Shown: piece by piece, positions 12,780-37,099 of the stretch
Layout: every line of letters begins with the position of its first letter
Position numbering within the stretch: the first letter of the stretch is position 1
From: Candidatus Dormiibacterota bacterium
GTDB taxonomy: Bacteria > Chloroflexota > Dormibacteria > Aeolococcales > Aeolococcaceae
NCBI GenBank assembly: GCA_963808125.1
Contig: CAWEEP010000059.1
Coordinates: forward strand, 39,380-103,379
Direction: 5' to 3'
Length of the DNA stretch: 64,000 nt
Position numbers and translations under genes: made by a program
Notes under the pieces: model-generated
The model's database searches: none
What the model was told of the DNA's origin: nothing
The model's input: only the letters and a program-made list of their open reading frames with translations

Positions 12780-14149
12780 TCAGCCGAGAGCGATGGAGGG
12801 GGCCACCCCCGGCTGCTCGATCTCCGGCAGGGCGGAGGGTGCGGCGATGGCCCGGCGGCCCATGCTCAGGTAGACGCCTCCGTGGGCGGCGATCAGCTCG
12901 CCGTCCAGGCAGTTGCGCCCGTCGACGACGAGGCTCCCGCGCATGAGCGAGACCACCCTCGCCCAGTCGAGCTCCAAGTACTCCGGCCACTCGGTGACCA
13001 GACCGACGGCGTCACTGCCGGTGACCGCCTCGTAAGGGTCCTCGACCAGCTCGACGCGGGAAAGGATCGACCGGGCATTGGTGAGCGCCACCGGGTCGGT
13101 GGCGACGATCTGGGCGCCCGACCCCTGGACGTGCCGGATGATGTCGATGGCCGGCGCCTGCCGCAGATCGTCGGTGAAGGGCTTGAAGGCGAGGCCGAGG
13201 ATGGCCACGCGGCGTCCCTGGAGGCTCCCTCCAGGCCTTCGCGCAGCTTCCCAATGAAGCGACGCCGCTGCTGGTTGTTGACCTCGATGGCGGCCTTGAG
13301 AAGCCAGAAGCTCTGACCGTGGTACCCGGCTGACGTCTCCAAGGCGCGGACGTCCTTGGGGAAACAGGAGCCCCCCCAGCCGAGACCGGCACTCAGGAAG
13401 CTGCGCCCGACGCGGGGGTCGAGGCCCATCCCGTCGGCGACGTGGTCGATGTCCGCGCCGGTGAGCTCGCAGAGCTGGGCCATCTCGTTAATGAAGCTGA
13501 TTTTGGTGGCGAGAAAGGCGTTGGAGCCGTACTTGATCAGCTCGGCGCTGGTGCTGTCGCAGAGCAGGCGCACGGAATCCAGGCCGTCGAACAGAGCTGC
13601 CACCCGCTGCCTGGCCGTGGGATCTTCGCCGCCGACCACGATGCGACTGGGGTTCCGGAAGTCGTGCATGGCCGAGCCCTCGCGGAGGAACTCGGGGCAC
13701 ATCACGAACGCCACGTCGCGCCTCTCGGTCCGGGCGGCCAGGGCGCGGGTGCTTCCCGGTGGGATGGTGCTCTTGATGGCAATGACGACGTCGGGACCCA
13801 CGTGGAGGAGCGCCTCGCCCACCGCCTGGTGGACCTGGGAGAGGTCGGCCTCGCCGTCAGGTGTTGGAGGGGTGCCGACCGCGACCATGACGATGCCGGC
13901 ACCCTCGACGCCCTCCTGCATCGTCTCCACCGTTCGCAGGCGGCCGGCGCTCACCACCTCGGCGAGGAGCGTATCGAGCCCAGGCTCGTGGATTGGGCAG
14001 ATTCCCGCCGCGACCGCAGCACGGCGGTCAGGATCGATCTCGACCAGGCGGACCTCGCGGCCCAGGTCGGCCAGGCCCACGGCGGTCACGAGACCGACGT
14101 AACCGGCGCCGACGATGCAGACGACCCGGTCGTCGGGGGTTGGGCCCAT
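12780..14149 (-). CDS. UDP-glucose 6-dehydrogenase; reading frame broken once near nt 13225-13240
   Basis: N-terminal Rossmann VVCIVGAGYVGLVTAVGLADLG, catalytic region GGSCFPKDVRAL, and …NNQQRRRFIGKLREGLEG on one frame (12893-14149). The C-terminal …VAILGLAFKPFTDDLRQAPAIDII… is on the 12780-13208 frame. The junction ggagggagcctccag is consistent with a 1-nt indel. Confidence 0.8.
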
Positions 14150-14984: not shown

Positions 14985-16655
14985 ATGGCAGCGCCAAATC
15001 TTGCCACGCGGAGCGCGCCTCTAAGTATCCCAGCGCGGACAGGGATCGGCCGTCTGGCGCTGGGTCTGCGAGCTCCGGCGCTGTTCCTGGCGCTCGCGCT
15101 GGTGGTGCTGCGGCCCGGGCTGTTCACTGGCCACGACACGATCGTGGGTAACGCCGGGGATCCCTCGCTGTCCATCTGGGCGTTGCAGTGGCTGCCATTC
15201 GCCCTGGGCCACCACCTGAATCCGCTGATGACCGACTACCTCCACTACCCGACTGGCGCCAACCTGATGTGGAACGGTTCCATCCTCTTCCCCGCCCTGG
15301 TGCTGGCGCCAGTCACCCTCATCTTCGGCCCCATCGTCTCCTACAACGTCTTGGCCCTCCTCAGCGTATGGCTCTCCGGCTGGTGCGCCTACCTCGGAGT
15401 GCGCCGCTTCTCACGCCGCTGGGTCTCCGCGCTGATCGGAGGTCTCCTCTACGAGCTGAGCCCCTTCATGGCCAGCCAGATCACCGGCCACGCCCAGATG
15501 TTCGTGGCCATCTTTCCCCCACTGCTGCTGCTCTTCGCCAACGAGATCCTGGTGCGCCAGCGGCGACGGCCGGCGCTCATGGGGGCGCTGCTGGGCTTCG
15601 CCGCCGCCGCCCAGCTCCTCACCGGTACGGAGATGCTGGCCATCTGCGCTGTCATGGCCATCCCGCCCCTGGTCACGCTCGCCGTCCTCCGCCGCGACCA
15701 GGTGCGGGAGAAGCTCCCCTACGCGCTCCGGGCGGCCGGTTTCGCCGCCCTCACCTTCGCCGTGCTGGCGGCGTATCCGCTGTACCTGGTGCTCCTCGGA
15801 CCGCAGCACGTTTCCGGAGCTCTCCAGGGTTTCGTCTACATGGCGCGGCCGACCTCCTTCCTGATCCCGTCGAACGTCCAGCTGATCAGCGGGCCCACCA
15901 CCGTCCTCGACTCCAGCGTGTATATCGGCATCCCAATGGCGATCCTGGCCGTGGCCGTCGGCGTCCGGCTGCGACACAGCCTCGTGGTGGCGGTGGCGTC
16001 GGTGACGCTGGCCTGTGCCGTGGTGCTGTCTCTAGGCGGCCATCTGACCATCCACGGCGGCCCCACGCCGATACCGCTCCCGTGGGACATCGCCCAGCAC
16101 CTGCCCGTGCTCGACAACGTGCTGCCGGTCCGCCTCATGGTGGCGGGCTACCTGGCCTTGTCGGTGATCGTCGCCGTCTTCATCGACGCCGTGCTCGAGG
16201 CTGTGCCGCGGCGGCAGCTCGCCGGGCTGGCGGCGGTCGCCGTGGCGCTGGTGTTCCTCGCCCCCCCGCTGCCGTTCTTCGCCGGACAGCTCATGGTCCC
16301 CGCCTTCTTCACGGACGGCTCGTCCCAGCGGCTCCCGCAGACAGGCTCAGTGCTGATCACCCCATACGGAGTCGCCTATGGGGACTACCCCCCGGAGCTC
16401 TGGCAGGCGGTGTCGAACATGGCCTTCAAGACCCAGCTGGGGATCGTCTACACCCCAGGGCCGGGCGGCCATGAGGTCGGCCCCGAGCTGGATCCGCTCG
16501 GCCGGGAACTGAGCGCCGTGGGAGACGCCGGCAGGCCCGTGCCGGCCACCCTTGCTGTCTCGGTCCGCCAGACGTACCTCGGCGACCTGCGGGCCCACGA
16601 CGTGACCACGGTGATCGTCGGCCCCTCGCCGGGGAGGCTCAGGTCGTGCAGCTGA
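14985..16655 (+). CDS. Polytopic integral membrane protein, GT-C-like topology (putative lipid-linked-sugar glycosyltransferase)
   Basis: 556 aa with at least 11 hydrophobic segments. The first extracytoplasmic loop after TM1 is rich in conserved small, acidic and aromatic residues (…GHDTIVGNAGDPSLSIWALQWLPF…), as in GT-C enzymes. Function inferred from topology and genomic context only. Confidence 0.6.
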   Translation: MAAPNLATRSAPLSIPARTGIGRLALGLRAPALFLALALVVLRPGLFTGHDTIVGNAGDPSLSIWALQWLPFALGHHLNPLMTDYLHYPTGANLMWNGSILFPALVLAPVTLIFGPIVSYNVLALLSVWLSGWCAYLGVRRFSRRWVSALIGGLLYELSPFMASQITGHAQMFVAIFPPLLLLFANEILVRQRRRPALMGALLGFAAAAQLLTGTEMLAICAVMAIPPLVTLAVLRRDQVREKLPYALRAAGFAALTFAVLAAYPLYLVLLGPQHVSGALQGFVYMARPTSFLIPSNVQLISGPTTVLDSSVYIGIPMAILAVAVGVRLRHSLVVAVASVTLACAVVLSLGGHLTIHGGPTPIPLPWDIAQHLPVLDNVLPVRLMVAGYLALSVIVAVFIDAVLEAVPRRQLAGLAAVAVALVFLAPPLPFFAGQLMVPAFFTDGSSQRLPQTGSVLITPYGVAYGDYPPELWQAVSNMAFKTQLGIVYTPGPGGHEVGPELDPLGRELSAVGDAGRPVPATLAVSVRQTYLGDLRAHDVTTVIVGPSPGRLRSCS

Positions 16656-16814
16656 TGACCGAGTTGCTCGGAACGCCCGGCACGGCAACGGGCGGGGTCG
16701 TCGTCTGGTACGGGGTGGGCGCCGAGACGTCGCCATGACCGCACCGCCGGGGCTGAATGCCCCCGGGCCACGGCGCCGCGCATCCCGCCACCTTTCGTGC
16801 GAGCATCTCGCTCC

Positions 16815-17441
16815 ATGAGCAGCTTCAGCCAGACGTACCTCGAGGAGGTCGGGCGCATCGCCGCCGCCATCGACAGCGACCAGGTGGAGCGACTGGCCGC
16901 CGGCCTGGCCCAGGTCAGAGAGCGGTCTGGCCGGCTCTTCGTCCTCGGCGTCGGCGGCTCGGCGGGCCACGCCGGCCACGCCGTCAACGATTTCCGGAAG
17001 CTGTGCGGTATCGAGGCGTACGCTCCCACCGACAACGTGTCCGAACTGACCGCACGCATCAATGACGACGGCTGGGACACCTCCTATAGTGCGTGGCTCG
17101 CCGGTTCCCATCTCCGGGCCCATGACGCGATCCTGGTCTTCTCGGTGGGGGGCGGCGACCGTGAGCGGGGCATCTCCGCCAACATCGTCAAAGCGCTGGA
17201 GGCAGCCCGGGCGGCGGGCTGCTTCATCGGCGGCATCGTGGGCAGGGACGGGGGGTACACCGCCCGCGTCGGCGACGCCGTCGTCATCATCCCGCCCCTC
17301 GTGGGTGAGCGGGTCACCGCCCACACCGAGGGTCTCTGCGCCGTCATCTGGCACCTCCTGGTCTCCCACCCCCTGCTGCAGCGGAACCCGACCAAGTGGG
17401 AATCGGCGGTGGGAGGCCCATCGTGGCCAGCCGTTTCCTGA
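16815..17441 (+). CDS. gmhA: SIS-domain D-sedoheptulose 7-phosphate isomerase
   Basis: ATG at 16815 (MSSFSQTYLEEV…). …GRLFVLGVGGSAGHAGHAVNDFRKL… and …DAILVFSVGGG… are GmhA-type SIS motifs. Confidence 0.8.
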   Translation: MSSFSQTYLEEVGRIAAAIDSDQVERLAAGLAQVRERSGRLFVLGVGGSAGHAGHAVNDFRKLCGIEAYAPTDNVSELTARINDDGWDTSYSAWLAGSHLRAHDAILVFSVGGGDRERGISANIVKALEAARAAGCFIGGIVGRDGGYTARVGDAVVIIPPLVGERVTAHTEGLCAVIWHLLVSHPLLQRNPTKWESAVGGPSWPAVS

Positions 17442-18411
17442 TCGTCGGAGGCGCCGGCTTCATCGGCAGTCATCTGACCGATCGCCTCCTCGGTGAGCCG
17501 GGCACCGAGCGCGTCACCCTGTACGACAACTTCTCCTCCGGCCGCGAGTGGCACTACGCGGCTTGGCGCGACGATCCGCGGCTGGACGTCATACGCGCCG
17601 ATGTCCACGAGCAGGAGCGTCTGAACGCCACCGCGGCGGGGCACGAGGTGGTGATTCACCTGGCGTCGAACCCCGACATCGCCCGGGCCGTGCGCGAGCC
17701 GTCGATCGACTTCCACGAGGGCACCGAGCTGACGCACGCCGTGGTCGAGGCGGCGCGGATCTCGGGTGCAACCACCCTCCTCTATCCCTCGGGAAGCGGG
17801 GTGTACGGAGATCTGGGAGAACTGGAGGTCGAGGAGGATCACGGTCCCCTGGTCCCGGTCTCCACGTATGGGGCGTCCAAGATGGCCGGAGAGGCCCTGA
17901 TCGCCGCCTACTGCCACATGTTCGGGCTGGTCGGACGGGCCTTCCGCTTCGGCAACGTCGTCGGAGCCAGGCAGACGCACGGCGTCGGTCTCGACTTCCT
18001 CCGCCGCCTGATCGAGGATCCGACGCGGCTGCGGATCCTCGGTGACGGCAAGCAGAGCAAGTCGTACATCCACGTGAGCGACGTGGTGGAGGCGGTCATG
18101 ACCGCCCTTGCGCGCGAGACACGGCCATTCCAGGTCTACAACGTCGCCACCGGCGACTACACGACGGTCCGCGAGATCGCCGACATGGCCGTCGAGGTTC
18201 TCGGCCTGCGGCCGGGATCTGTGACCTACGAATTCACCGGTGGGGATCGGGGCTGGAAGGGGGACGTGCCGGTCGTGCCGAACTCCGGACGGACCGCATC
18301 CGAGCGCTGGGGTGGAGCAACCGGCTGCGATCCTCCGAAGCCCTGCGGGCGTCCCTCGAGGAGATGCGCGCCACGCTTCCGGGGGGGGCGCCCGAAGGCA
18401 CCGGGGCGTGA
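17423..18411 (+). CDS. NAD-dependent epimerase/dehydratase (extended SDR); frame broken once near nt 18276-18284
   Basis: GTG at 17423. LIVGGAGFIGSHL (Rossmann), the YGASK catalytic motif, …HVSDVVEA…. The true C-terminus …ELRTDRIRALGWSNRLRSSEALRASLEEMRATLPGGAPEGTGA* lies in the +1 frame and ends at the TGA at 18409-18411, so a single missing G in ccgg is inferred. Paralogue of the 30439-31455 gene (…GDSPLIDLDTTKIRSLGWEPTLTIREAI…). Confidence 0.8.
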
Positions 18412-18968
18412 ACTCGGTTCCCGCCGTCTTCCTCGACCGCGACGGCGTGCTGAACGCGGCCGTCGTCGTCGACGGTCGCCCGCACCCCCCCCGAAGCGCC
18501 GCCGAGATGATGCTTCTGCCGGGCGTCGAGGACGCTTGCGCCCGGCTGCATGGTGCCGGTTTCGTGCTGGTCTGTGTGACCAACCAGCCCGATATCGCCC
18601 GGGGCGTGACCACCGCCGCCAGGGTGGCGGAGATCAACGACGACATCCAGCGCCGCCTCGGCCTCGATGCCGTCGCGGTCTGCCCCCATGACGACGCCGA
18701 CGGCTGTGCCTGCCGCAAACCCAAGCCGGGGCTGATCAGGGAAGCCGCCGCACGCCTCGGCCTGGATCTCACCCGAAGCGTGGTGGTCGGCGACCGCTGG
18801 CGCGACGTCGAGGCGGGTAGACAGGCGGGCTGCCGGACCGTCCTCATCGACCGCGCGTACGATGAGCCGGCGGCGATCGCCGACGCCGTTGCCGCCTCTC
18901 TGGCCGAGGCGGTCCCGTGGATCATCAGCCTCTCCCGCAGGGGGACCTCCCCGAGAGCGGAGGCATGA
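18408..18968 (+). CDS. gmhB: D-glycero-D-manno-heptose 1,7-bisphosphate phosphatase (HAD family)
   Basis: GTG at 18408 overlapping the epimerase stop (GTGA). AVFLDRDGVLN… (DxDx motif), …VCVTNQPDIARG…, …CPHDDADGCACRKPKPGL… (the Zn-binding Cx..C of GmhB), …VVGDRWRDVEAG…. Confidence 0.8.
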   Translation: MNSVPAVFLDRDGVLNAAVVVDGRPHPPRSAAEMMLLPGVEDACARLHGAGFVLVCVTNQPDIARGVTTAARVAEINDDIQRRLGLDAVAVCPHDDADGCACRKPKPGLIREAAARLGLDLTRSVVVGDRWRDVEAGRQAGCRTVLIDRAYDEPAAIADAVAASLAEAVPWIISLSRRGTSPRAEA

Positions 18969-18969
18969 C

Positions 18970-19696
18970 ATGGTGGACAGGGTGGATCTGAGCACATTGC
19001 GCGTCGAGGTGTTCGCCGACGGGGCGGATCGCGCCGGGATCGAGGGTCTGGCACGGAATCCCTGGATCAAGGGGTTCACCACCAACCCGACGCTGATGCG
19101 CGCTTCCGGCGTCGCCGACTACGAGGCGTTCGCACGGGACGTCCTCACCGTGGTCGGTGGCCGCCCAATCTCGTTCGAGGTCTTCGCCGACGATTTCGAC
19201 GAGATGATCCGCCAGGGGCGGCGGATCGCCGGCTGGGGTGAGGCGGTGTTCGTGAAGATTCCCGTCACCGACACCCAGGGCCGCCCCACCTCCGCCGTGC
19301 TCAGATCCCTGAGCTCGGAGGGTATCCAGCTCAACGTCACGGCGATGACCACCCCGGCACAGGTCCGCCGCGTCGTCGATTGCCTGGCGCCGGGAAGCCG
19401 TCACTTCGTGTCCCTCTTCGCCGGCAGGGTCGCGGACACGGGAAGGGACCCGCTGCCGCTGGTGCGGGAGTGCCTGGAGATCCTCGGTCCGCGTCCCGAG
19501 ATCAGGTTGATCTGGGCCAGTCCCCGAGAGATCCTCAACGTGATCCAGGCCCACGAGGTGGGCTGCCACGTCATCACGGTGACTTCACGACCTCCTCGCG
19601 AAGCTGCCGCTCCTGGGCAAGGATCTCGACGAGTACTCCCTGGAGACGGTGCGCATGTTCCATCGCGACGCGGTCACCGCCGGCTTCCACCTGTGA
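18970..19696 (+). CDS. tal: Transaldolase, short TalC/fructose-6-phosphate-aldolase-type; frame broken once near nt 19585-19590
   Basis: ATG at 18970 (MVDRVDLSTLRVEVFADGADRAGIEGLARNPWIKGFTTNPTLM…). Schiff-base Lys region …AVFVKIPVT…. The true C-terminus DLLAKLPLLGKDLDEYSLETVRMFHRDAVTAGFHL* lies in another frame ending at 19694-19696, so a 1-nt insertion in acttcacga is inferred. Confidence 0.8.
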
Positions 19697-19738
19697 GACC
19701 CGGGCGGCGCGACGCTCGACGCTGATGGCGACGGACTG

Positions 19739-20460
19739 ATGCCGCTGCCCGTGGTCATCCTCGCCGGCGGCCTCGCGACGCGGATGTACCCGCTCACTGA
19801 GACCGTACCCAAGGCGTTGCTACCGGTGAACGGGCGCCCCTTCGCGGACATCCAGCTGCGCTGGCTCAGTTTCTCGGGGTGCGCGACGTCGTGTACAGCA
19901 TCGCCTACTTGGGTGAGGCGATCCAAGAGCATGTCGGAGACGGTCGGCAATTCGGCCTTCGGGTCCGCTATGTGGCGGACGGCGAGCGGTACCTCGGTAC
20001 CGCCGGCGCGCTGCGCGCCGTCATCGACGCGCAGGCGGTGCCCAAAGACTTCGGGGTCGTCAACGGCGACTCCTTTCTCACCCTCGATCTCGCCGCGGTC
20101 GAACGTGCCTTCAGGGCGAGCGGCTCGCCGGCGCTGATGACAGTGATGCGCAACCGCGACCGCTGGGACAGCAGCAACGTGGTCTTCGACAAGGGGCGCG
20201 TCGTCGTCTACGACAAAAGCCGGCCCGGTGCGTCGCGGGACCGGATGGAGTGGATCGACTACGGTTTCTCGGTCCTGGCCCGCCACGCCATCACCGACCG
20301 CGTCGCGGCGGGCCAGGTCGCCGACCTCTCCGATGTGATGCGCGAACTGAGCCTCGCCGGACAGCTGGCTGGCTTCGAGGTTGCCGACCGCTTCTACGAG
20401 ATCGGCTCACCACAAGGATTAGCTGACCTCGAGCGCCACCTGGGACCGCTTGCCCCATAG
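19739..20460 (+). CDS. hddC: Sugar-1-phosphate nucleotidyltransferase, D-glycero-alpha-D-manno-heptose-1-phosphate guanylyltransferase-like; frame broken near nt 19866-19876
   Basis: MPLPVVILAGGLATRMYPLTETVPKALLPVNGRPFADIQLRWL on one frame, then …VRDVVYSIAYLGEAIQEHVGDG…YLGTAGAL…VVNGDSF… on the next. A single-base loss in agtttctc is inferred. Context is gmhA/gmhB/hddA. Confidence 0.75.
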
Positions 20461-20476
20461 TGCCGCCGGAGGCGGC

Positions 20477-21055
20477 TCAGATGTTCTCGATCGACCAGTC
20501 GAAGCCGATGCGAGGATCGTTCCAGCCGATCCGGCCCTCGTCGGGCTTCTGCGGGTCGTACGGCTCCGTAACATAGTAGTTGAGGATGACGTCGCGCAGG
20601 TCCAGCGCCTGGTAACCGTGCGCAACGAGCGGAGGGATGGCCACCATCTTGGGGGCGTTCTCACCCAGGATGACCACCTGGATGACGCCGCGGGTGGGTG
20701 ACTCGTGGCGCAGGTCGACTAGCACGACGCGCGCGTTGCCCTGGACAATGTCCCAGTAGTCCCACTGCTTCCTGTGCCAGTGGAAGGCCTTGATGAGCTC
20801 CGGCGGGTTGCCGCCCCGCGCGTAGGCGAGACTGCGCGACATCTGCGCGAACGGCTGCTCGGGGATGAAGAGGTTGCCATCGTCGTCCCTGTCGCCACGC
20901 TTCAGCTGCTCGATGAAGTAGCCGCGCTGGTCGGCCGATTTCCGGAACGTCTTGACGCGGACGTCGTGAATCCTTCCCAGCCGTTCGCGGGCCGGGGTGC
21001 CGGCCATGTCGTCGAGCACATGCTCCATCTCGGTGGGCACGGGTGTCCAGGCCAT
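20477..21055 (-). CDS. rmlC: dTDP-4-dehydrorhamnose 3,5-epimerase-like cupin
   Basis: ATG rc at 21055 (MAWTPVPTEMEHV…). …RGYFIEQLKRG…, …AFHWHRKQWDYWDIVQGNARVVLVDLR…, …PPLVAHGYQAL…, …YYVTEPYDPQKPDEGRIGWNDPRIGFDW…. 193 aa. The upstream 278 codons of the ORF are non-coding extension. Confidence 0.75.
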   Translation of the reverse strand: MAWTPVPTEMEHVLDDMAGTPARERLGRIHDVRVKTFRKSADQRGYFIEQLKRGDRDDDGNLFIPEQPFAQMSRSLAYARGGNPPELIKAFHWHRKQWDYWDIVQGNARVVLVDLRHESPTRGVIQVVILGENAPKMVAIPPLVAHGYQALDLRDVILNYYVTEPYDPQKPDEGRIGWNDPRIGFDWSIENI

Positions 21056-22152
21056 CAGCGCAACTCCACAATGGAATGGTCGCCCAGCATCAGCTTGTAG
21101 GCGCGGGGGCGGACCGGGGATCGACGGATGACGCAGCCTTTGCCGATAAGCGATGACTCGATCTTGCCGTCGGCGTTCTCGATGGTCGTGCCCGCCAGGA
21201 CGATGCTGTGCTCGATCTCCGCACTCCGTATCGTGCAGTCGGGGCTGATCGAGGTGTAGGGCCCGACGTAGGCGTCGTCGATCAACGTGCCGGTGCCGAT
21301 GATGGCGGGGCCCCTCACGGTGCAGTTGCGTAGCCGCGCACCGGCTTCGATGACGACCTTGCCCTCGATGCGCACGTCCGGGCCGACATCGCCGTCGACG
21401 CGGGGAGGCATGTCGTCGAGGACGATGCGATTGGCCTCGAGGAGGTCCTCGGGGCGGCCGGTGTCCTTCCACGTGGCCACCAGGGCCTCATGGGGCGCGG
21501 TGATGATGTGAGCACGCACCGTCTTGCCCTGGTCGATCATCTCCTGGATGGCGTCGGTGATCTCCAACTCCCCTCGAGGCGAGTAGTCGATCCGGTCGAT
21601 CGCATCGAAGATGGCCTGGGTGAAGAGATACACCCCAACCAGGGCCAGGTCGGAGCGCGGCACGGCTGGCTTCTCCACCAGCCGCACGACGCGGCCGTCC
21701 TCCAGCTCCGCGACGCCGAAGTGCTGGGGCTCCGAAACCCGGGCGAGCAGGATCATGGCGTCGGGTTCGGTGGCGCGGAACTCATCGACGATCGGGATGA
21801 TCCCGTGGCGGACGAGATTGTCGCCGAGGTACATGACGAAGGCGCTGCCGGCTAGGAAGTCCCGGGCGGTGAGAACGGCATGGGCGAGGCCGAGCGGAGC
21901 CTCCTGGCGGATGTAGGTGCAGCGGGCACCGAAGCTGGAACCGTCCCCGACGGCGGCCTCGACCTCGTCAGCGGTGTCGCCGGTGATGATGCCGATGTCG
22001 TCGATCCCTGCCGCGACCAGGGCGTCCATGGCGTAGAAGAGGATGGGCCGGTTGCCCACCGGGATCAGCTGCTTGGCACTGGTGTGGGTGATGGGACGCA
22101 GCCGGGTGCCCTTCCCCCCGCTGAGGATCAAGCCTTTGAGGGTTCGGGACAC
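21055..22152 (-). CDS. rmlA: Glucose-1-phosphate thymidylyltransferase, long form with C-terminal left-handed beta-helix
   Basis: GTG rc at 22152. GLILSGGKGTRLRPITHTSAKQLIPVGNRPILFYAMDAL…GLAHAV… are the N-terminal nucleotidyltransferase motifs. The C-terminal hexapeptide repeats (…IEGKVVIEAGARLRNCTVRGPAIIGTGTLIDDAYVGPYTSI…) are as in actinobacterial and archaeal RmlA. Confidence 0.85.
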   Translation of the reverse strand: MSRTLKGLILSGGKGTRLRPITHTSAKQLIPVGNRPILFYAMDALVAAGIDDIGIITGDTADEVEAAVGDGSSFGARCTYIRQEAPLGLAHAVLTARDFLAGSAFVMYLGDNLVRHGIIPIVDEFRATEPDAMILLARVSEPQHFGVAELEDGRVVRLVEKPAVPRSDLALVGVYLFTQAIFDAIDRIDYSPRGELEITDAIQEMIDQGKTVRAHIITAPHEALVATWKDTGRPEDLLEANRIVLDDMPPRVDGDVGPDVRIEGKVVIEAGARLRNCTVRGPAIIGTGTLIDDAYVGPYTSISPDCTIRSAEIEHSIVLAGTTIENADGKIESSLIGKGCVIRRSPVRPRAYKLMLGDHSIVELR

Positions 22153-22276
22153 AGGTTCAGGCTCTCCGGGCAGCGGTCGCCGGGCGCACGGGGAATGCCA
22201 CACTCGTCCCGGCGCTCCGGATCGGGCGCGAGTTCTACGCGATCGGACCGGATTTCGGGGCCGGGCGCGGTCCGTC

Positions 22277-23383
22277 TCACTGCCGCGGCTGCGGCCTCTT
22301 CACCGGCCGCAGCCTGTGATAGACACGGCTCGGCGCGCGCGACCACCGCCACATCCGGCTGCCCTCGATGGCGTCGAGACGACGCTGGGCGTCGATGAGA
22401 CGGCGGTTGAAGTCGGCCACCTCAGCGTTCAGCTCGACGATCCGTGCCTCGGCGCGGGCGGCGCGGGCTTGGCGGATGACGACCTCCGGCTCCAGCTCTC
22501 CGAAGAGGGAGTCCCGCTGCCGCGCCCGGCTGATCTTGACCACCATCTCCGCATCGCGGGCATCGAATGAGGCCGCCACCAGACCGTCCCCACTGAAGGA
22601 CTCGCCCACGGTGTGTTCGGCGATCACGTGCCCGCCGGCGGCTTCGACCGCCGCGAGGACGTTCTGATGGGTCATCGGATCCCCCGAGATCGAGTGATGA
22701 TGGGTCGATATCAGAGCGAATCGAATGTCACCGCGAGCGACGAGCGGTCGCAGCTGCTCGATGAGCGTTGTCTCCGCCCCCTGGATGTCGGCGAGGAGCA
22801 GGCTGACCCGCTCCATACCGCCGAGTGCCATCAGAGCCCGGACATCGAACTGGGGGACGTCGTGCAGCTCGCCGTCGCTCTCCGCCAGGAACCTCATCGT
22901 CCCGCCCGGATGGGGACCGACGGCGCCGTGCACGAAGGTCGCCGTCTCGCGGTTGTAGCCGAAATTCCGGCGGCCGACCTCGAGGAACCGCTCGTCCGGC
23001 TCCAGGTCGACGACGATGCTCGCGGGGAGCGCGTGCCGGAACCAGAGACTGTAGAAGGCCCACCAGCTGCCGAGCTCGATCATCGTGGGATGCTCGTCGG
23101 TGGCGAGCAGACGCTCCACCATGCGGGCGAAGACCAGTTCCTCCTGCGGCTCGTGATGGCCGCGAAGGCAGCGGATGATCTCCGTCGTCCAGCGGCCGCA
23201 GTACGCGTCCCTCTCGACCACGACGCCGTTGTGCATGACCTGAACGGCGACACCGTCCACTTCGCGGAAGCCACCGGCATCGGGGACCTTGGGCAGGTCG
23301 TCGCAGTCGTGACAGGAGACGGTCAGCGCAATGCGCCTGGCGTGGTCGGGAAAGTCGCTCAGATGCGGGCTACGCCGCTCCAT
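22277..23383 (-). CDS. SAM-dependent methyltransferase, FkbM-like, with C-terminal coiled-coil
   Basis: …MIELGSWWAFYSLWF… and …FLLADIQGAETTLI… resemble the FkbM-family MTase core. The C-terminal roughly 70 aa (…RAARAEARIVELNAEVADFNRRLIDAQRRLDAIEGS…) is predicted coiled coil. The family call is from motif memory only. Confidence 0.7.
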   Translation of the reverse strand: MERRSPHLSDFPDHARRIALTVSCHDCDDLPKVPDAGGFREVDGVAVQVMHNGVVVERDAYCGRWTTEIIRCLRGHHEPQEELVFARMVERLLATDEHPTMIELGSWWAFYSLWFRHALPASIVVDLEPDERFLEVGRRNFGYNRETATFVHGAVGPHPGGTMRFLAESDGELHDVPQFDVRALMALGGMERVSLLLADIQGAETTLIEQLRPLVARGDIRFALISTHHHSISGDPMTHQNVLAAVEAAGGHVIAEHTVGESFSGDGLVAASFDARDAEMVVKISRARQRDSLFGELEPEVVIRQARAARAEARIVELNAEVADFNRRLIDAQRRLDAIEGSRMWRWSRAPSRVYHRLRPVKRPQPRQ

Positions 23384-23971: not shown

Positions 23972-24604
23972 ATGGGACGGGTGCGGTCGATCCTCCAGGC
24001 CGCGAGGCTCCGCTCGGCGGGCGACGCCGAGCCTGCTGACCCCACGACGCCGACCGCTCACCGCGTCCTGGTCGACGCCAGCACCCGGACCTTCTGGTCG
24101 CGCGGCGCGACGGTCCCGGTGACGCTGGTGGAGGCCGACGAGGTCCCGCCCCCCGGCAACGCACCAGGCCGGGTGAGGGCCATGGTCGCCGCCCACGAGC
24201 GCGGCACGGACGGCGCCGCGCGCCGAGGGACCGGGGATCCCGCGTTCAGCGAGACGCTGTTCGTGGAGCTGGTCCGTGGGGGGCAGTACGGGCGGGCCTT
24301 CGCTCTCCTGGCGCCCGGCTGCCAGCGCCGCTGGGGTACCGCCGAGCGCTTTGCCGCCGCGCACAGCGGCGATGCCCGGCGCCGCCTCCATGGCGTCACC
24401 GTGGTCGGAGTTCGCCGTCTCGAGGCGTGGTCCGACCCCGAGACGGGCGAACGCCATCGAGACGTCGCCGAACTCGATGTCGAATACAACTTCGACGCCG
24501 GGGCCCGGGCCGCTGTGCTCCGTCGGACGGTCCATCTCGTCGCCGTGGCGGGGACGTGGCGCTCCCTTTCCTACCCGGAGAGACCGGCCGGGGCCACCAG
24601 CTGA
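23972..24604 (+). CDS. Hypothetical protein
   Basis: 210-aa ORF divergent from the REC gene. No recognisable motif. Composition plausible for coding. Confidence 0.35.
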   Translation: MGRVRSILQAARLRSAGDAEPADPTTPTAHRVLVDASTRTFWSRGATVPVTLVEADEVPPPGNAPGRVRAMVAAHERGTDGAARRGTGDPAFSETLFVELVRGGQYGRAFALLAPGCQRRWGTAERFAAAHSGDARRRLHGVTVVGVRRLEAWSDPETGERHRDVAELDVEYNFDAGARAAVLRRTVHLVAVAGTWRSLSYPERPAGATS

Positions 24605-24653
24605 TCGTCACCAGCTCAGAACCTCCCGGACGGGCCGCGATATCTAGAATGCG

Positions 24654-25046
24654 TTGATGATCTCCGCCGCCGTCCTGCGCAGCCAGCCTGGTCCGCTGGC
24701 CCGGACACGCGCCGAACTCATCCACATCGAGCGCCGTGCCGCCTTCCGGCGGGCGCGCCTCACCCGGGAGCGGATGTGGCTCAACGAGTCCGACACGCTG
24801 CTCGATCTCGTCGAGGAGTGCCGCCTGCGCCGGATCAGCCCGCTGCCCGTCGCACTGTGGTCCGCCGTAGTCCGCCTGGTGGGCACCGTCGAGCCGGCGC
24901 TGCGCGACGAGTTGGGGATCAACCGCGACGCCGACCACGTGTGCGACGTCCTGTTCGCGGCCCAGGAGGTTCTCCAGGAGCGAGCCCACAGGGCGCGCCA
25001 GCCTCAGCTGGCCCCGATCATCCAGCTGTTCCCGGGCGCGGGCTGA
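24654..25046 (+). CDS. Hypothetical protein
   Basis: 130-aa ORF, no recognisable motif. Confidence 0.3.
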   Translation: MMISAAVLRSQPGPLARTRAELIHIERRAAFRRARLTRERMWLNESDTLLDLVEECRLRRISPLPVALWSAVVRLVGTVEPALRDELGINRDADHVCDVLFAAQEVLQERAHRARQPQLAPIIQLFPGAG

Positions 25047-25076
25047 CCCGGGTCACTCCCACAGCACCTCCGCGCC

Positions 25077-25955
25077 ATGGCCTGGGAGATCTCGGTGGCG
25101 GGCACCGTCCACCTCGACGACGTCGAGACGCCTCGCGGCCACCGGCCGCGCCAGCTGGGCGGTTCGGCCCTCTACTTCTCCCTCGCCGCGGCGCCCCAAG
25201 CACGCGTCCATTTCCACGCCATCGCGGGACGCGACTGCGAGGAGGAGTTGCGCCGGACCCTTGCCGGACTTCCCGTCGACCTCTCCGGCCTGACCGTCAG
25301 TGAGACACCGACCTTCCGCTGGCACGCCGTCCATGACTTCGAGCGGTGGGAGGCAGAGACCATCGCCGAGGAGCCGGGCTGCGAACCCGAGTGGCGCCCG
25401 CGCCTGAGTAGGGAGGCCGCCGGTGCAGAGGTGCTCTTCCTCGGCAGTCTGGCGCCGGCCCTGCAGAGGGAGGTCCTGGCGCAATCATCGGCACGCCTGA
25501 TCGGGATGGACAGCATGACCTGCTTCACCGGGCCGGAGCGCGCCGCCGTGCTGACCTTGGCCGGGGCCTGCGACGTCCTATTCTTCAACCGCGCCGAGCT
25601 GATGAGCCTCGTCCCCGGCGCCCGGGACTGGCGGGACGCGGCCCTGGGCCTGGCGGGCCGGGGGCGGCTCCGCGCCCTGGTGGTCAAGGCCGGGCCCCTC
25701 GGGGCGGCCCTCGTCACCACCGATGGGATCGTCCACCGGCCCGCCTCCCCGGTCGGCGACGTCGTCGATCCCACGGGCGCGGGAGACGGGGTCGCCGGAG
25801 GCTTCCTGGGGCACTGCGCGAGCGTCGGGCGCGACGACGACGAGACCTTTCTCGATGCGCTGGACGAGGGCCTCCGGCGTGCCGCCGCCGTCATCGGCAC
25901 GTTCGGCACGACCGGGCTGCGCGCCCTCGCCACCGGCACCTCCGAGAGGTCGTGA
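25077..25955 (+). CDS. PfkB/ribokinase-family carbohydrate kinase
   Basis: …DVLFFNRAEL… and the C-terminal anion hole DPTGAGDGVAGGFL (DTxGAGD) are diagnostic of the PfkB family. Confidence 0.8.
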   Translation: MAWEISVAGTVHLDDVETPRGHRPRQLGGSALYFSLAAAPQARVHFHAIAGRDCEEELRRTLAGLPVDLSGLTVSETPTFRWHAVHDFERWEAETIAEEPGCEPEWRPRLSREAAGAEVLFLGSLAPALQREVLAQSSARLIGMDSMTCFTGPERAAVLTLAGACDVLFFNRAELMSLVPGARDWRDAALGLAGRGRLRALVVKAGPLGAALVTTDGIVHRPASPVGDVVDPTGAGDGVAGGFLGHCASVGRDDDETFLDALDEGLRRAAAVIGTFGTTGLRALATGTSERS

Positions 25956-26010
25956 GCGGCACGACCGCCTCAGATCACGATGTCGAAAGGCAGGCGGGTA
26001 AAGTGGGGAC

Positions 26011-26349
26011 ATGATGCGTTATGGATTCGGTCGCGGCATCGGTTTCGGCTTCCCCCTCTGGGGAGCCATTGTCGGGTTCGTTCTCCTCTTCCTCCTCGTC
26101 GCTGCCATCGCCTGGCTCATCGTGGTCCTCGCCCGTCCTAGGCGCTTCGGACCCATGGACCCGTTCGCGTACCGGCACCCGCACCACAACCCGGCGCTCC
26201 ACGAGTTGGATCTCGCCTACGCGAGGGGCCAGGTCAGCCGCGAGGAGTACCTCCGGCGCAGGGCCGACCTCAGCTGGTCGGGTTACCCGGGCGGCCCCCC
26301 GGCTGGCTCCCCGCAGGAACCGGGCGAGAGTTCCACGCCTCCGCAGTAG
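26011..26349 (+). CDS. SHOCT-domain small membrane protein
   Basis: N-terminal TM helix, C-terminal …ELDLAYARGQVSREEYLRRRADL… (SHOCT-like). Confidence 0.5.
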   Translation: MMRYGFGRGIGFGFPLWGAIVGFVLLFLLVAAIAWLIVVLARPRRFGPMDPFAYRHPHHNPALHELDLAYARGQVSREEYLRRRADLSWSGYPGGPPAGSPQEPGESSTPPQ

Positions 26350-26403: not shown

Positions 26404-27264
26404 TCACGCTTTCCGGGCCGCGACGATGGTCATTTCGCCAAATCTGAGGGGTAGACGCACATGTGCCGGTCTGAGCGCGAGCAGCCCCCGACTTGCCCGC
26501 GTCAGGGCCCGCATCGGGCCCGGTCCGAACGTCGCCGCCTGCCCGAACAGATAGGCAAAGGTCACGTATTTGGTGGTGGGGACGACCTTGAGGATCTTCA
26601 TCCCGGCCGAGTCCAGGGCGATTCGCATACCACGCAGGGAGAACAGGACCAGATGCTCCTCCCGATACTGTGGCCACAGGCGTCCTGTCATGCGATGAAC
26701 GGCTGATCCCGCCCGCGGGGTGGAGATCAACAGCCGACCCTGCGGCGCGAGAACGGCGGCCGCGGCACCGAGCGTCTCGCCCGGCGATCGCACATGCTCG
26801 ATGAAGTCGAACATAGTCACGATGTCCCAGCCGCCCTTGACGGTTACGGGATCGAGCTCCCCGCAGAGAAAGTCGGCGTCGGGGACTCGCTTCCTCGCCA
26901 CATCGATGGCCGCGGCATTCAGATCAACTCCGGTGACCTTCAGTCCGGCTGAGACAGCCGCCTCAGCGAGTTCGCCCTGGGCACAGCCGACATCGAGAAG
27001 GCGCGCGCCGGCGACCGGCTTGAGGAACGCCAAGGCTCGCAAGAACGTTCTGGCCTTCATGGCGCGAACGACCGGAGCCCTTTCCCATTGCCATGGCTCG
27101 TAGTAGCTGGGACCGTAGATCGCCGACAAGCGCGCGTCGTCCGGCTGAGGGGAGAGGAACTCCGAGTCGCAGTCCATGCACCGGACCAGGCGCGTATACC
27201 CATACACGGCACGCCCGGCGGCCACCCCTATCTCGACGCCGCAGGCGGGACAGCTTTCAGCCAT
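26404..27264 (-). CDS. Class I SAM-dependent methyltransferase with N-terminal zinc ribbon
   Basis: MAESCPACG…CMDCD, then motif I LLDVGCAQG, post-I, motif II …IVTMFDFIEHV…, motif III …LAPQGRLLIST…. Confidence 0.8.
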   Translation of the reverse strand: MAESCPACGVEIGVAAGRAVYGYTRLVRCMDCDSEFLSPQPDDARLSAIYGPSYYEPWQWERAPVVRAMKARTFLRALAFLKPVAGARLLDVGCAQGELAEAAVSAGLKVTGVDLNAAAIDVARKRVPDADFLCGELDPVTVKGGWDIVTMFDFIEHVRSPGETLGAAAAVLAPQGRLLISTPRAGSAVHRMTGRLWPQYREEHLVLFSLRGMRIALDSAGMKILKVVPTTKYVTFAYLFGQAATFGPGPMRALTRASRGLLALRPAHVRLPLRFGEMTIVAARKA

Positions 27265-27369
27265 GTTCGAGCGTCACCTCCGCCACTCGGACCGGATGCG
27301 CCACTCGCTCCGGCGTGTCGACGGCCCGTATCCTACGGCTTCCCGCCTGGGCTCAGGCGGCGTCCGCGC

Positions 27370-30300
27370 ATGGTATCGTACGCGCGGTTTTCGGGAGTAA
27401 CGGCCCGTTCGCCGCGCTCATGGAGGACCCTCGACACCTTGGGTGGCCCTGAACTGGGAGACGCCGCGGCGGTTGGCGGCGCGCCCCCGCGTCACGAGGC
27501 CGTCGATCCGCGGGCGCCAGCGCCGCCCGAGGCGTCCACTTCCGCGCTGAGAGCCGCCCGTGTGGCTGTTGTCGGCGCCGCAGCGCTGAGCTGGGTGGTG
27601 TGGGGGCGGGTGGGCACCCAGCTCTCGGTGAGGACGGACATCGTCGGCGGCACCACGTTCTACGACTTCGACATCTACCAGTACCTGGACTATCTCTACA
27701 TCGTCCTGCTCCTGCTCCCTGCTCTGGCCGCCGCCCTGTTCCTGGCACTGAGCCGCTGGGGGCCTCTGGCCTCCCGGCGATCACGACCGTCGTGGCCCCC
27801 ACTGCTTTCACGCCGCGAGGGAGCGTCTCCCGACCGCCGGGCGGCTCCGGAACCGGCGGCAACGGCATCGATCGAGGCGGCGGGCGGAGACGTCCCCAAT
27901 CGGCGGCGGCTGTCGCCCCTGGAAATGGCCGGTGTCGCAGCCCGCCTGCTCCTGCCGGCCCTGGTGATCGCGGCGGAGATCGAGGTTGGTGTCTCGACGC
28001 GAGGCCAGATTCTCACCTTCGGCAAGATGGGTGTCGGCGTGGTGATCATCTATATCGTTCTCGTACTCACCGTGGCCCTGCTCTGCGAGAAGTGGGGACA
28101 TGCTGGGGTCGCCGCCCTTTCCGCCGCCAACGCGGTCATCGCCACTGCGGTCGTCCCCTTGCTGCTTCTCGTCTCGGCATCAACATCGGTGTTCGTCGCC
28201 TCCGACCACGACGTCGTCCGTTACCCGTGGCTCCCCATTTGGGTGGCGGTGCCTGTCGCCGCCGCCATCGTGGTGGGGGTTGGCCTAGGGCTGGCCCGCG
28301 GCGGTTGGAAGGCAGCCCACAGTATCGAGCGCTGGGTGCTCATCGCCGCGGTGATGCCGGTGGCGCTGTTCCTCGCGACCGCCATGCTTCAGGGCGCTCA
28401 GGGCGCGATCAACGCCTTCGACGACTCGCAATCGATGGTGGGCGCACAACTCGTCTTCGGCCACGGTCTCCTCCCTTGGAAGAGCGTGTTCCTGCTGCAC
28501 GGCTTCCTCGCCGACGGGTTCGACGGAGCGCTCGGCATCTGGGCCTTCGGCGCCACGCGGTGGGCATCGAATTCCGGTCTCTCGTTCTTCGTCACACCGG
28601 TGACGGTGATCTGCCTCTGCGGGTTCATCGCCTACTTCTGCCGCAGGAACTGGGCACTCGTGGTGGGCGGAGCCCTTGTCCTCCTCCTCGGCCTGCTCTC
28701 GAATCCGTACTCGCCCCGTTACGTGCTCGTCCCGGTGGTGCTGATCCTCTTCGACATGGTGCTGCGCCGGCCCAGTTGGCGCCGCTGCTGGCTGTTCATG
28801 AGTGCAGTCGTGTTCACCGCGATCGTCACGCCAGAGGCGACCATCCTCGTCGTCGGGGTGCTCGTCACTCTTGCCGGCGCGGAGCTGGTTCACCACCGCT
28901 GGGGCACGCCGGTCCTCGACGGCTTTCCCGCCACGGTGCGTTCCATCGTCGCCGGCTCGGTCCTGACGGCGCTGTGGGTCGCCTTTCTTCTCGCCAACGG
29001 CGCCCTCTCAGGCTTCGTCAACTACTACACGAGCACCGTGGCAGGGCATGAACTGTGGGGAGCCCTGTCGATTGCCTGGCCGCTGAACGGAGACCTCAAT
29101 TCGACGGTCTGGTTCGCACTGCCCATCGCCCTTTTCCTGCTCACCGTCGCAAAGGTGGTGCGGAAGCTCCACCGCCGTTCGCCGTGGCGAAGTGCGGAGT
29201 GGACACTGGTCGCGTCGTCCACCTTCGTCCCGCTCTTCTACCAGGTCATCATCGACCGCTTCGACCCACCACACATCGACGAGGTCGCCGCTGCGCTCAT
29301 CCCCTTCGTGTTCCTCTGGGGAATCGAGGGCGTGGCGGCGGCCGATCGCCTCCTCGCCCGGCTCGGCACCCGGGCGTCCGGCTGGATCTCGCGGCATGGC
29401 GCACGACGGCGCGATACCCGTGCCTGGAGTGGATTCGGCGGGCAGTGGAGGGCCGCCACCCCTGCGGCGCTGGCGGTGATCGTCGGGGTCGTCCTCTGGT
29501 CCCCCAACCGCTGGCCTATCTCAAGACCATCCCCGGCCACTTCCACCCCACGGTCCCCGTCGAGGCTCCGACGGCGCTGCCTCTGGGCTACACCCTCCCA
29601 GGGTCGATCGACACGACACAGCTCGAGGATCTCTCGACCGTGCTCGACCTCTACGCCGGTCCCTCCGGCCCAGTCGTTGACTTCGCCGAGGAGATGGGCG
29701 TGACGTACTATCTCCTCGGTCGGGTTCCCGGAGCACCCTTCGTGGTCATCAGTTCGGCCCAGACTGCCGCCGCCCAGCAGGAGGATATAGCCGCCCTGCG
29801 CCAGAGTCGCCCGCCGGTCGCGATCTTCAATGACGCGACGTTTGGACTTACCGACTACGACGGCATCTGGAGTATGGAGCGGGACTACCTCGTGAGCCAG
29901 TATCTCCTCGACAACTACCGTCCCATCCTTGACGTGGAGGGCCAGATCGTCATGCTGCGGGACGACCTGGTGAACACGGCACCGCCGCCCCCGACCCTCC
30001 AGATCGCGCCGGTCACCACGGGGCTGTACTTCGCCGGTGAGCCCTCATGCGCCTGGGGCGACGTGCCCGACTTTTTCGATCCCCCAACGGCGACCGAGAT
30101 CAGCGATGGGGTGGCGGTGCCGACGGCTGCCGATGTCCCCCCCGCCACGATGGCGGCGTCCACGTCGCTGCTGAGCCTCACCGTGCCCGGGGCGCTGACC
30201 TCGTATCAATGGCTCGAGTTCTCCGCCCCTCCGGTTTCGGCCGGGCGACCATCCAAGTCACGGATCAGACGCTGGGGGCCAAGGCATCCCACGTCATCAG

Positions 30301-30442
30301 TTTCACGACACTGCCGCGCGTGGGTTCGACCGTCTTCCTGAGAGTCTGCAGCTGCATCCAGTGGCACGGGTACGCCGCCGGCTCGCTTCATCTCCTCTTG
30401 CAGGGGGCGCCCACCGACATGACCGTGCGGGCGCTGCCATGA
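27370..30442 (+). CDS. Very large polytopic membrane protein (about 1020 aa) with C-terminal extracytoplasmic domain, GT-C-like glycosyltransferase candidate; two frame breaks (about nt 29501-29509 and 30226-30234)
   Basis: ATG at 27370. At least 15 hydrophobic helices. The first loop carries …TFYDFDIYQYLDYLY… (acidic DxD-like motif as in GT-C). The C-terminal roughly 300 aa is soluble (…VDFAEEMGVTYYLLGRVPGAPFVVISSAQ…). Frame 1 to frame 2 joins at a C5 run (tcccccaacc). Frame 2 to frame 3 joins at cccctccgg. The final C-terminus …ATIQVTDQTLGAKASHVISFTTLPRVGSTVFLRVCSCIQWHGYAAG…RALP* overlaps the next gene start (ATGA). Confidence 0.6.
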
Positions 30443-37084: not shown

Positions 37085-37099
37085 GCGCAGGCAGACCGT

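Follow-up and report, generated by a model that had tools for sequence, protein, structure and literature searches.

Gene content of the locus

We analyzed a 64,000-nucleotide (nt) stretch of contig CAWEEP010000059.1 from a Candidatus Dormiibacterota bacterium, referred to below as the window. It contains a forward-strand operon (16815-20460) in which a transaldolase gene, tal, is embedded among genes for the activation of a sugar phosphate, and a second group of related genes follows at 30.4-34.3 kb. The two groups are halves of a single cassette found across many phyla, and our preferred reading, which we hold tentatively, is that it directs the synthesis of a nucleoside diphosphate (NDP)-octose-type sugar destined for the cell envelope. 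The G+C content of the window is about 70%, so that raw lists of open reading frames are mostly noise; genes were called from third-position GC and from comparison with relatives.

The operon comprises genes for a SIS-domain ketose/aldose phosphate isomerase (16815-17441, 208 residues), an NAD-dependent, epimerase-type short-chain dehydrogenase/reductase (SDR1; 17423-18411, approximately 329 residues, with a 1-nt deletion near 18277), a HAD-IIIA sugar-bisphosphate phosphatase with a GTG start (18408-18968, 186 residues), the transaldolase Tal of the TIGR02134 family (18970-19696, 241 residues once an extra T at 19584 is repaired) and a sugar-1-phosphate nucleotidyltransferase (19739-20460, 240 residues once a C missing at 19871 is restored). 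An initial annotation of this DNA had placed the same five genes in this order, and our gene calls and the relatives bear out both the order and the coordinates. It had further described coupling through GTGA and ATGA overlaps. The former, joining the SDR1 stop to the HAD start, is genuine (18408-18411), but the “ATGA” at 18965-18968 is no stop/start overlap, because the ATG in it lies in another frame; tal begins at 18970, 1 nt past the HAD stop, as it also does in the gene calls of the near-identical contig L002. The SIS and SDR1 genes overlap by 19 nt, 42 nt separate tal from the nucleotidyltransferase gene, and the SIS gene lies 83 nt downstream of a membrane glycosyltransferase gene on the same strand. 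A scan of 14.8-20.8 kb for promoters and terminators returned a single weak promoter-like site, within the SIS gene, and no terminators.

The second group, likewise on the forward strand, contains a second epimerase-type enzyme orthologous to the cassette SDR (SDR2; 30439-31455), a GHMP sugar-phosphate 1-kinase (31480-32466, 328 residues), a Gfo/Idh/MocA oxidoreductase (32463-33452; PF22725, with four frameshifts here) and a short-chain dehydrogenase/reductase of the adh_short type (33419-34320; PF13561 and PF00106, with two frameshifts), whose end abuts an insertion sequence (IS) transposase gene. The kinase gene directly follows a paralogous epimerase gene, as had been noted before; SDR1 and SDR2 are 41% identical.

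Transaldolase and activation enzymes

Tal scored 306 bits against TIGR02134 (curated cut-off 282), and its best homologues were found in Candidatus Dormibacterota metagenome-assembled genomes; no close solved relative was found among PDB structures. Asp17, Glu70, Lys96 and Thr124 were invariant in 27 homologues and aligned with the corresponding positions of 3S0C and 1VPX, which we take to be the Schiff-base lysine and the acid/base residues by reference to these structures and to the Thermoplasma transaldolase. Judged by these residues, Tal looks catalytically active. Full-length HAD-Tal fusions occur among metagenome proteins (P0084 and P0106, 421-422 residues), although these could also be assembly-indel artefacts, because the HAD and tal genes lie only 1 nt apart. 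Tal is also encoded on Lawsonia and Rhizobium plasmids and in mycobacteria, organisms that generally possess an ordinary tal. Across phyla, cassette Tals share 51-65% identity, compared with 42-46% to the TIGR02134 members of staphylococci and lactobacilli. A separate occurrence is plasmid p3211-1 of Streptomyces sp. 3211 (L087, 12468-16427), where a 54%-identical Tal sits among many IS elements, beside genes for a D-arabinono-1,4-lactone oxidase, the hexitol phosphatase HxpB and a major facilitator superfamily transporter; no SIS or kinase gene is annotated nearby.

The initial annotation had named the isomerase, kinase, phosphatase and nucleotidyltransferase genes gmhA, hddA, gmhB and hddC. 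To examine these names we used an equivalog test, in which each protein is scored against the NCBIfam cut-off for GmhA, HddA, GmhB or HddC. None reached it, and the names are therefore unjustified. The SIS protein gave 38 bits with TIGR00441 (GmhA, cut-off 209), 31-34 bits with NF010546, NF010547 and NF001628 (cut-offs 265-320) and 31 bits with Pfam SIS_2. Its best PDB matches were GmhA structures, at merely 27-33 bits, so that it appears to resemble GmhA at the level of the SIS family only, as a distant relative; to cassette SIS proteins of other phyla it is 54-63% identical. For the GHMP kinase the HddA model NF049969 returned 139 bits (cut-off 600), and identity to Tal-adjacent kinases in other phyla was 47-54%. 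The HAD protein passed TIGR01656 (HAD-IIIA, 135 bits) and a histidinol-phosphatase domain model (92 bits) and fell below the cut-off of every GmhB model (122 of 178, 79 of 150 and 64 of 250 bits). The nucleotidyltransferase carries PF00483 and matched the HddC model NF049965 over the N-terminal 150 residues only (64 bits, cut-off 300). Its best NCBIfam match was MurU (100 bits, cut-off 250) and its best PDB match 4Y7T, while Yersinia HddC aligned over residues 4-119 only. What survives of the proposed heptose pathway is its outline: the genes make up one sugar-nucleotide pathway, which is built like the GDP-heptose route from an isomerase, a GHMP kinase, a HAD phosphatase and a nucleotidyltransferase. 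The gene names were too specific.

Both epimerase-type proteins belong to PF01370, with 143 bits for SDR1, which reached no equivalog cut-off, and 163 bits for SDR2, which is 64% identical to the cassette SDR of locus L077. They read STGS/SGSG ahead of the YxxxK motif and have no acid residue at the position after the catalytic Thr/Ser, where 4,6-dehydratases carry one; on their motifs, they look like epimerases or reductases. An analogy with 6-deoxy-heptose tailoring in Campylobacter, drawn previously, is therefore weak, given the missing dehydratase residue and given that the linked tailoring genes are those of the Gfo/Idh/MocA enzyme and the short-chain reductase, which had escaped notice.

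A cassette conserved across phyla

A scan based on the Tal alignment, with one genome per species, recovered at least 596 relatives, the best 80 of which came from more than 10 phyla. Together with a locus on a Lawsonia plasmid (L088), these 80 formed a Tal-centered sample of 81 loci that was selected on Tal alone. Genes near Tal encoded a SIS protein in 65 of the 81 loci, a HAD phosphatase in 59, a GHMP kinase in 43 and a nucleotidyltransferase in 37, counts that are lower bounds because many contigs are short. In a second sample, centered on the kinase and selected on it only (12 loci with adequate flanks), Tal and the reductase were each present in 10 loci, and the Gfo enzyme and SDR2 each in 11.

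The block that emerged comprises nine genes, for SDR2, a sugar-nucleotide dehydrogenase, a short-chain reductase, a Gfo/Idh/MocA enzyme, the GHMP kinase, the nucleotidyltransferase, the SIS isomerase, the HAD phosphatase and Tal, and recurs in Chloroflexota, Acidobacteriota, Deltaproteobacteria and Eremiobacterota-type genomes. Plasmid 3 of Lawsonia intracellularis (L088) encodes the same nine families in another order, with an extra membrane-protein gene after Tal. Altogether, cassette carriers were found among Dormibacterota, Actinomycetota including mycobacteria, Acidobacteriota, Chloroflexota, Myxococcota, Planctomycetota, Proteobacteria including Legionellales, and Lawsonia. Because it recurs in many phyla, this synteny lies far beyond chance, and it is best explained if the transaldolase is the integral first enzyme of the cassette and not an accessory.

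The relatives also settle how the two gene groups of the window are connected. In locus L091, whose kinase is 80% identical to that of the window, genes for RmlA, SIS, Tal, the nucleotidyltransferase, SDR2, the GHMP kinase, the Gfo enzyme and the reductase follow one another without interruption, with rmlA on the same strand as the SIS gene. Since they are contiguous there, the groups at 16.8-20.5 kb and 30.4-34.3 kb represent one pathway split by approximately 10 kb. In other Dormibacterota (L007-L011) the kinase gene lies inside the operon, between those for Tal and the nucleotidyltransferase, a placement shared with the cultured actinobacteria Mycobacterium seoulense (L169) and Rugosimonospora africana (L170), both of which also have the order SIS-SDR-HAD-Tal. 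The earlier assignment of the distant kinase to the pathway thus rests on firm ground. The M. seoulense cassette lies among genes for family 2 glycosyltransferases (GT2), a methyltransferase, a thiamine pyrophosphate (TPP) enzyme and NeuB-like proteins.

The initial annotation had interpreted tal as a supplier of sedoheptulose-7-phosphate. That tal is functionally tied to the pathway, and is no bystander, agrees with its distribution. Supply, however, does not explain its near-obligate membership of the cassette, because to our knowledge the classical four-enzyme heptose pathway (GmhA, HddA, GmhB and HddC) includes no transaldolase; the part assigned to tal was probably too small.

A second variant was encountered in Proteobacteria (L013, 10001-16568; also L012, L024, L043 and others). 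At L013, Tal is followed by two SDRs, a cytidylyltransferase-family protein resembling HldE domain II, a Gfo enzyme and a sugar dehydrogenase. At least the Tal-SDR-SDR part is common to many Proteobacteria, and the gene content of the variant suggests an ADP/beta-type version of the activation steps. As a lead only, the Coxiella O-antigen genes CBU0674 to CBU0678 (PMC5843353) may be of this kind. In the literature searched we found no description of the cassette, and a search for transaldolases within heptose or O-antigen clusters gave nothing relevant.

Comparison with the lincosamide pathway

The lincosamide route is the one characterized pathway in which GDP-heptose-type architecture is combined with a transaldolase. 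The product of its isomerase LmbN is said to be octose-8-phosphate, and the side-chain chemistry leading from GDP-octose to GDP-lincosamide was reportedly set out in a 2020 paper on the pathway. The transaldolase LmbR uses fructose-6-phosphate or sedoheptulose-7-phosphate as C3 donor and ribose-5-phosphate as acceptor to form octulose-8-phosphate (PMC5854111). LmbN acts as the C8 isomerase, and a kinase (LmbP), a phosphatase (LmbK) and a guanylyltransferase (LmbO) carry the route on to GDP-octose (PMC4351081, PMC12945683), which the SDR LmbM, the sugar-nucleotide dehydrogenase LmbL, the NAD(P) oxidoreductase LmbZ and LmbS convert to GDP-lincosamide (PMC12945683).

The window encodes all five families of the first part (transaldolase, isomerase, GHMP kinase, HAD phosphatase and nucleotidyltransferase), and these are linked across phyla. 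The nine-gene cassette corresponds to the families of LmbM, L, Z, P, O, N, K and R, with the reductase in the place of LmbS, and in both systems a cluster-encoded transaldolase precedes a GmhA-like isomerase in the same logical order. The agreement extends to protein length for K, N, P, O, M and Z, where the comparison covered family, length and nearest homologue only. For the celesticetin proteins CcbK, N, Z, P and O, the closest homologues outside the lincosamide clusters are 37-49% identical and belong to Solibacter, Sorangium, an uncultured acidobacterium and Acidobacterium capsulatum (PMC4351081 S1), and the loci of the Tal scan place the cassette in those same lineages.

The two systems also differ. 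The setting here is an envelope-glycan locus with GT-C, GT2 and Rml genes rather than an antibiotic cluster. The window genes scanned included none for an LmbS/DegT-type aminotransferase, the only aminotransferases being of class V, beside SUF genes; a short-chain reductase sits where LmbS would. Many cassette loci, like the Lawsonia plasmid, have the complete trio of SDR, dehydrogenase and Gfo enzyme. With the Streptomyces plasmid Tal as seed, no lincosamide protein appeared among the best 120 matches.

Glycosyltransferases and surrounding genes

Immediately upstream of the operon, a forward-strand gene (15087-16732, frameshifted near 16630) encodes a 550-residue membrane protein that matched no Pfam or NCBIfam model. 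Its AlphaFold2 model (mean pLDDT 86.6, pTM 0.88) retrieved GT-C enzymes with Foldseek as PDB hits 1-26 throughout (among them AglB/STT3, AftD, AftA, ArnT and PimE), at probabilities of 0.91-1.0. The protein is thus predicted to adopt a GT-C glycosyltransferase fold. Asp59, which lies in the stretch that follows the first helix, does not vary among the aligned homologues, in keeping with the conserved acidic residue of the first outer loop of GT-C enzymes, and two homologues touch GT87 at its cut-off. The gene is kept upstream of the operon in L003, L005 and L007, in some cases (for example L007) as two tandem copies; among the homologues listed, all those with a named source are from Dormibacterota.

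On the reverse strand beyond the second gene group, a large protein with a GT2 domain (35570-37942; PF00535, 94 bits) is of the polyprenyl-phosphate glycosyltransferase type and shows partial NCBIfam matches to AglJ and dolichyl-phosphate hexose transferase. An orthologue with 60% identity lies beside the cassette in L091, and actinobacterial cassette carriers have a GT2 gene with GT2_TM_C just upstream. The GT2 protein is the probable first transferase for the activated sugar. A GT2 and a GT-C enzyme encoded beside sugar-activation genes recall the three-component polyprenyl-phosphate systems (ArnC/ArnT, GtrA/B/C and mycobacterial PpgS with Rv3779), from which the present locus differs in that a flippase was not identified and that the GT-C protein falls in no curated family.

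Convergent to the operon are two reverse-strand genes, for an RmlC-like cupin (20480-21055; 63 bits to the RmlC model, below cut-off) and for a long-form RmlA nucleotidyltransferase (21058-22131; TIGR01208, 434 bits, above cut-off); the pair is conserved beside the operon in L001 and L003-L006. Other envelope genes in the surroundings include those for FemAB, YvcK, Ugd, RmlA/B/C-like proteins and methyltransferases, and farther out are core genes (Mur ligase, DD-carboxypeptidase, SUF and ParB). The reverse-strand gene of the UDP-glucose/GDP-mannose dehydrogenase family, Ugd (12783-14134, frameshifted near 13228, assigned by the Pfam match of its L003 orthologue), was considered as the LmbL equivalent and rejected, since any Ugd would come equally close to the cassette dehydrogenases. 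With the L003 orthologue as query, identity was 34-37% to the L077 cassette dehydrogenase and 43-47% to off-cassette dehydrogenases in L052 and L071. By these identities it looks like an ordinary Ugd whose membership of the pathway is doubtful.

Between the two gene groups lies a PfkB-family kinase gene (25077-25955), whose product matched no specific sugar kinase model; as a candidate HldA-type heptokinase it was discarded, with just 22 bits to rfaE domain I. The intervals 23972-26349 and 27088-29703 hold three small conserved genes (approximately 130-210 residues) and one for a large protein (969 residues in L003), which gave no family match. The intact IS-type DDE transposase gene adjoining the reductase gene is on the reverse strand (34262-35485).

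Frameshifts in the deposited assembly

As written, three of the five operon genes (SDR1, tal and the nucleotidyltransferase gene) are frameshifted, a point on which the initial annotation was silent. The shifts could be real, in which case the pathway would be dead in this genome and the operon and tailoring genes would be decaying pseudogenes. The deposited gene calls, from a 159,736-nt NCBI/ENA contig, are indeed the frameshifted forms (including P0362 and P0241), with a Tal of 251 residues (P0362) and a GT-C protein of 556 residues. Furthermore, the Gfo and reductase genes contain six shifts within 1.9 kb (32463-34320), approximately ten times the rate elsewhere in the window, and stand beside the intact IS transposase gene that abuts the reductase gene. 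These six emerged when the region was read in three frames and aligned with the orthologues of L091, whose Gfo gene is intact; a metagenome scan with the kinase returned no near-identical contig over 30-35 kb for comparison. Either a hotspot of errors or true decay could underlie them.

Two mutually independent contigs, L001 from a JGI metagenome and L002 from a Logan assembly of a different run, represent essentially the same strain and speak against decay. Over 18284-22320 they are 99.8-99.9% identical to the window, from which they differ by single-base indels only, at 19584 in tal, at 19871 in the nucleotidyltransferase gene and once more at 22233; L002 showed 0 mismatches over 1.8 kb. The indel at 22233 falls in the stretch upstream of the rmlA-like start. 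Intact Tal (P0001) is thus present on two independent contigs, the operon orthologues are intact in L003 to L006, and the SDR1 orthologue is intact in L003. Nor are the shifts confined to the pathway. By comparison with the 83%-identical relative L003, Ugd (near 13228), the GT-C gene (near 16630) and the gene for the 969-residue protein (near 29540) are affected as well, and outside the indels the third-position GC of the reading frames stays high and their products are 76-88% identical to intact orthologues. Since L001 and L002 are free of the tal and nucleotidyltransferase indels and unrelated genes are also hit, the indels of the window are most likely assembly errors, with the genes intact in the population. 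For the same reasons we dropped cluster-specific pseudogenization, and we regard a dead pathway as quite improbable. In practical terms, the deposited assembly carries frameshifts in several genes of the window, and its calls for them are wrong.

Proposed pathway and alternatives

We propose, as the best reading but one to which we give slightly less than even weight, that the cassette encodes an NDP-octose-type pathway feeding envelope glycosylation by the GT2 and GT-C enzymes. The gene identities on which it builds are established at the level of family, as are the synteny and the linkage of the two halves, while every substrate, carbon number and nucleotide named here is what we infer from them. 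Tal would transfer a C3 unit from fructose-6-phosphate or sedoheptulose-7-phosphate to an aldose phosphate, most likely ribose-5-phosphate, giving octulose-8-phosphate as LmbR does. The divergent SIS isomerase could then convert the ketose to the aldose 8-phosphate, the GHMP kinase would phosphorylate C1, and the HAD-IIIA phosphatase would remove the terminal phosphate before the nucleotidyltransferase forms the NDP-sugar. The SDR epimerases, the Gfo/Idh/MocA enzyme and the short-chain reductase may tailor the ring and side chain. Finally, the GT2 enzyme would load the sugar onto polyprenyl phosphate, from which the GT-C enzyme encoded upstream could transfer it to an extracytoplasmic acceptor.

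Several observations weigh against an octose. Sequence alone cannot tell a C7 from a C8 product. No linear octose is known to us from the envelope glycans of bacteria, nor did a literature search for octoses in bacterial glycans find any. Homology to the Lmb/Ccb octose enzymes is suggested only indirectly, by the taxa in which the closest Ccb homologues occur. The nearest solved structures of the kinase are the heptokinase WcbL (166 bits, E = 1e-47) and 3K85 (153 bits). In the window itself, SDR and Gfo types are present, but a cassette-type dehydrogenase in the position of LmbL is not evident, the sole dehydrogenase being Ugd-like. The TIGR02134 members of staphylococci and lactobacilli are, as we understand the TIGRFAM description, presumably ordinary pentose-phosphate transaldolases. 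The transaldolase of the lincosamide clusters probably belongs to a subfamily other than that of the 241-residue Tal, because CcbR has 222 residues and is closest to a Cellulomonas transaldolase (PMC4351081 S1); the parallel between the two transaldolases is at best one of analogous recruitment.

The strong rival is a heptose route, possible in our estimation though rather doubtful, in which diverged forms of GmhA, HddA, GmhB and HddC make an NDP- or GDP-heptose from sedoheptulose-7-phosphate, Tal only boosts the supply of that precursor, and the SDR, Gfo and reductase enzymes tailor the heptose. In its enzyme families and in the sequence of their reactions the cassette agrees with the GDP-D-glycero-alpha-D-manno-heptose route, known from the Aneurinibacillus S-layer glycan and from Campylobacter and Burkholderia capsules, with which it shares all four families and the reaction logic. 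Heptose enzymes are, moreover, the sole named families that the SIS protein, the kinase and the phosphatase touch, and the closest solved structures lead from the kinase to heptokinases and from the SIS protein to GmhA. Sedoheptulose-7-phosphate is a standard transaldolase product, and paralogues for precursor supply are common in glycan clusters. On the other hand, all four enzymes lie far under their equivalog cut-offs, and Tal is near-obligate in the cassette, at times fused to the phosphatase. One would not expect this of an optional supply gene, given that sedoheptulose-7-phosphate is available in nearly all bacteria; the cassette, in addition, occurs in organisms that generally have a normal tal already. 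Tal is integral here, the tailoring enzymes linked to the cassette are the Gfo/Idh/MocA enzyme and the reductase and not a GMD-like 4,6-dehydratase, and the dehydratase acid residue is absent from both SDRs. The pair of Gfo enzyme and sugar dehydrogenase fits the enzymes that convert GDP-octose to GDP-lincosamide (PMC12945683) and not the SDR-type 4,6-dehydratases of deoxyheptose routes.

It is far less probable, and in our view hardly credible, that Tal is simply the pentose-phosphate transaldolase of the cell, parked by the operon with no dedicated role. TIGR02134 was reportedly defined on organisms without other transaldolases, and the 64 kb of genome in view neither show nor exclude a second tal elsewhere. 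The linkage of Tal to SIS and HAD genes across more than 10 phyla argues against such a coincidence, as do the 1-nt gap to the HAD gene and the existence of fusions, carriage on plasmids, and the closer resemblance of cassette Tals to one another across phyla than to the Firmicute enzymes.

Should the product be a heptose after all, the cassette would still represent a distinct and widespread pathway variant, whose members are currently annotated just as “transaldolase”, “SIS domain protein” or “galactokinase”. Returning to the octose-type pathway, we put forward a broader proposal that is plausible but more speculative, and that we hold with some doubt: the phylum-spanning cassette may make an NDP-activated linear octose, possibly modified in its side chain, for envelope glycans through a dedicated Tal step on ribose-5-phosphate. 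The lincosamide genes would then be a specialized offshoot, and the alpha-type (GHMP kinase and NTP-transferase) and beta-type (HldE-like) variants would mirror the two heptose routes. If an octose is indeed made, bacterial cell surfaces would gain an eight-carbon aldose among their known building blocks, and the origin of the lincomycin sugar pathway would be explained. The cassette would, moreover, serve as a marker for an envelope glycan so far unrecognized, in many uncultured soil phyla as well as in some pathogens or their relatives, among them Lawsonia, Coxiellaceae and Legionellales, and non-tuberculous mycobacteria.

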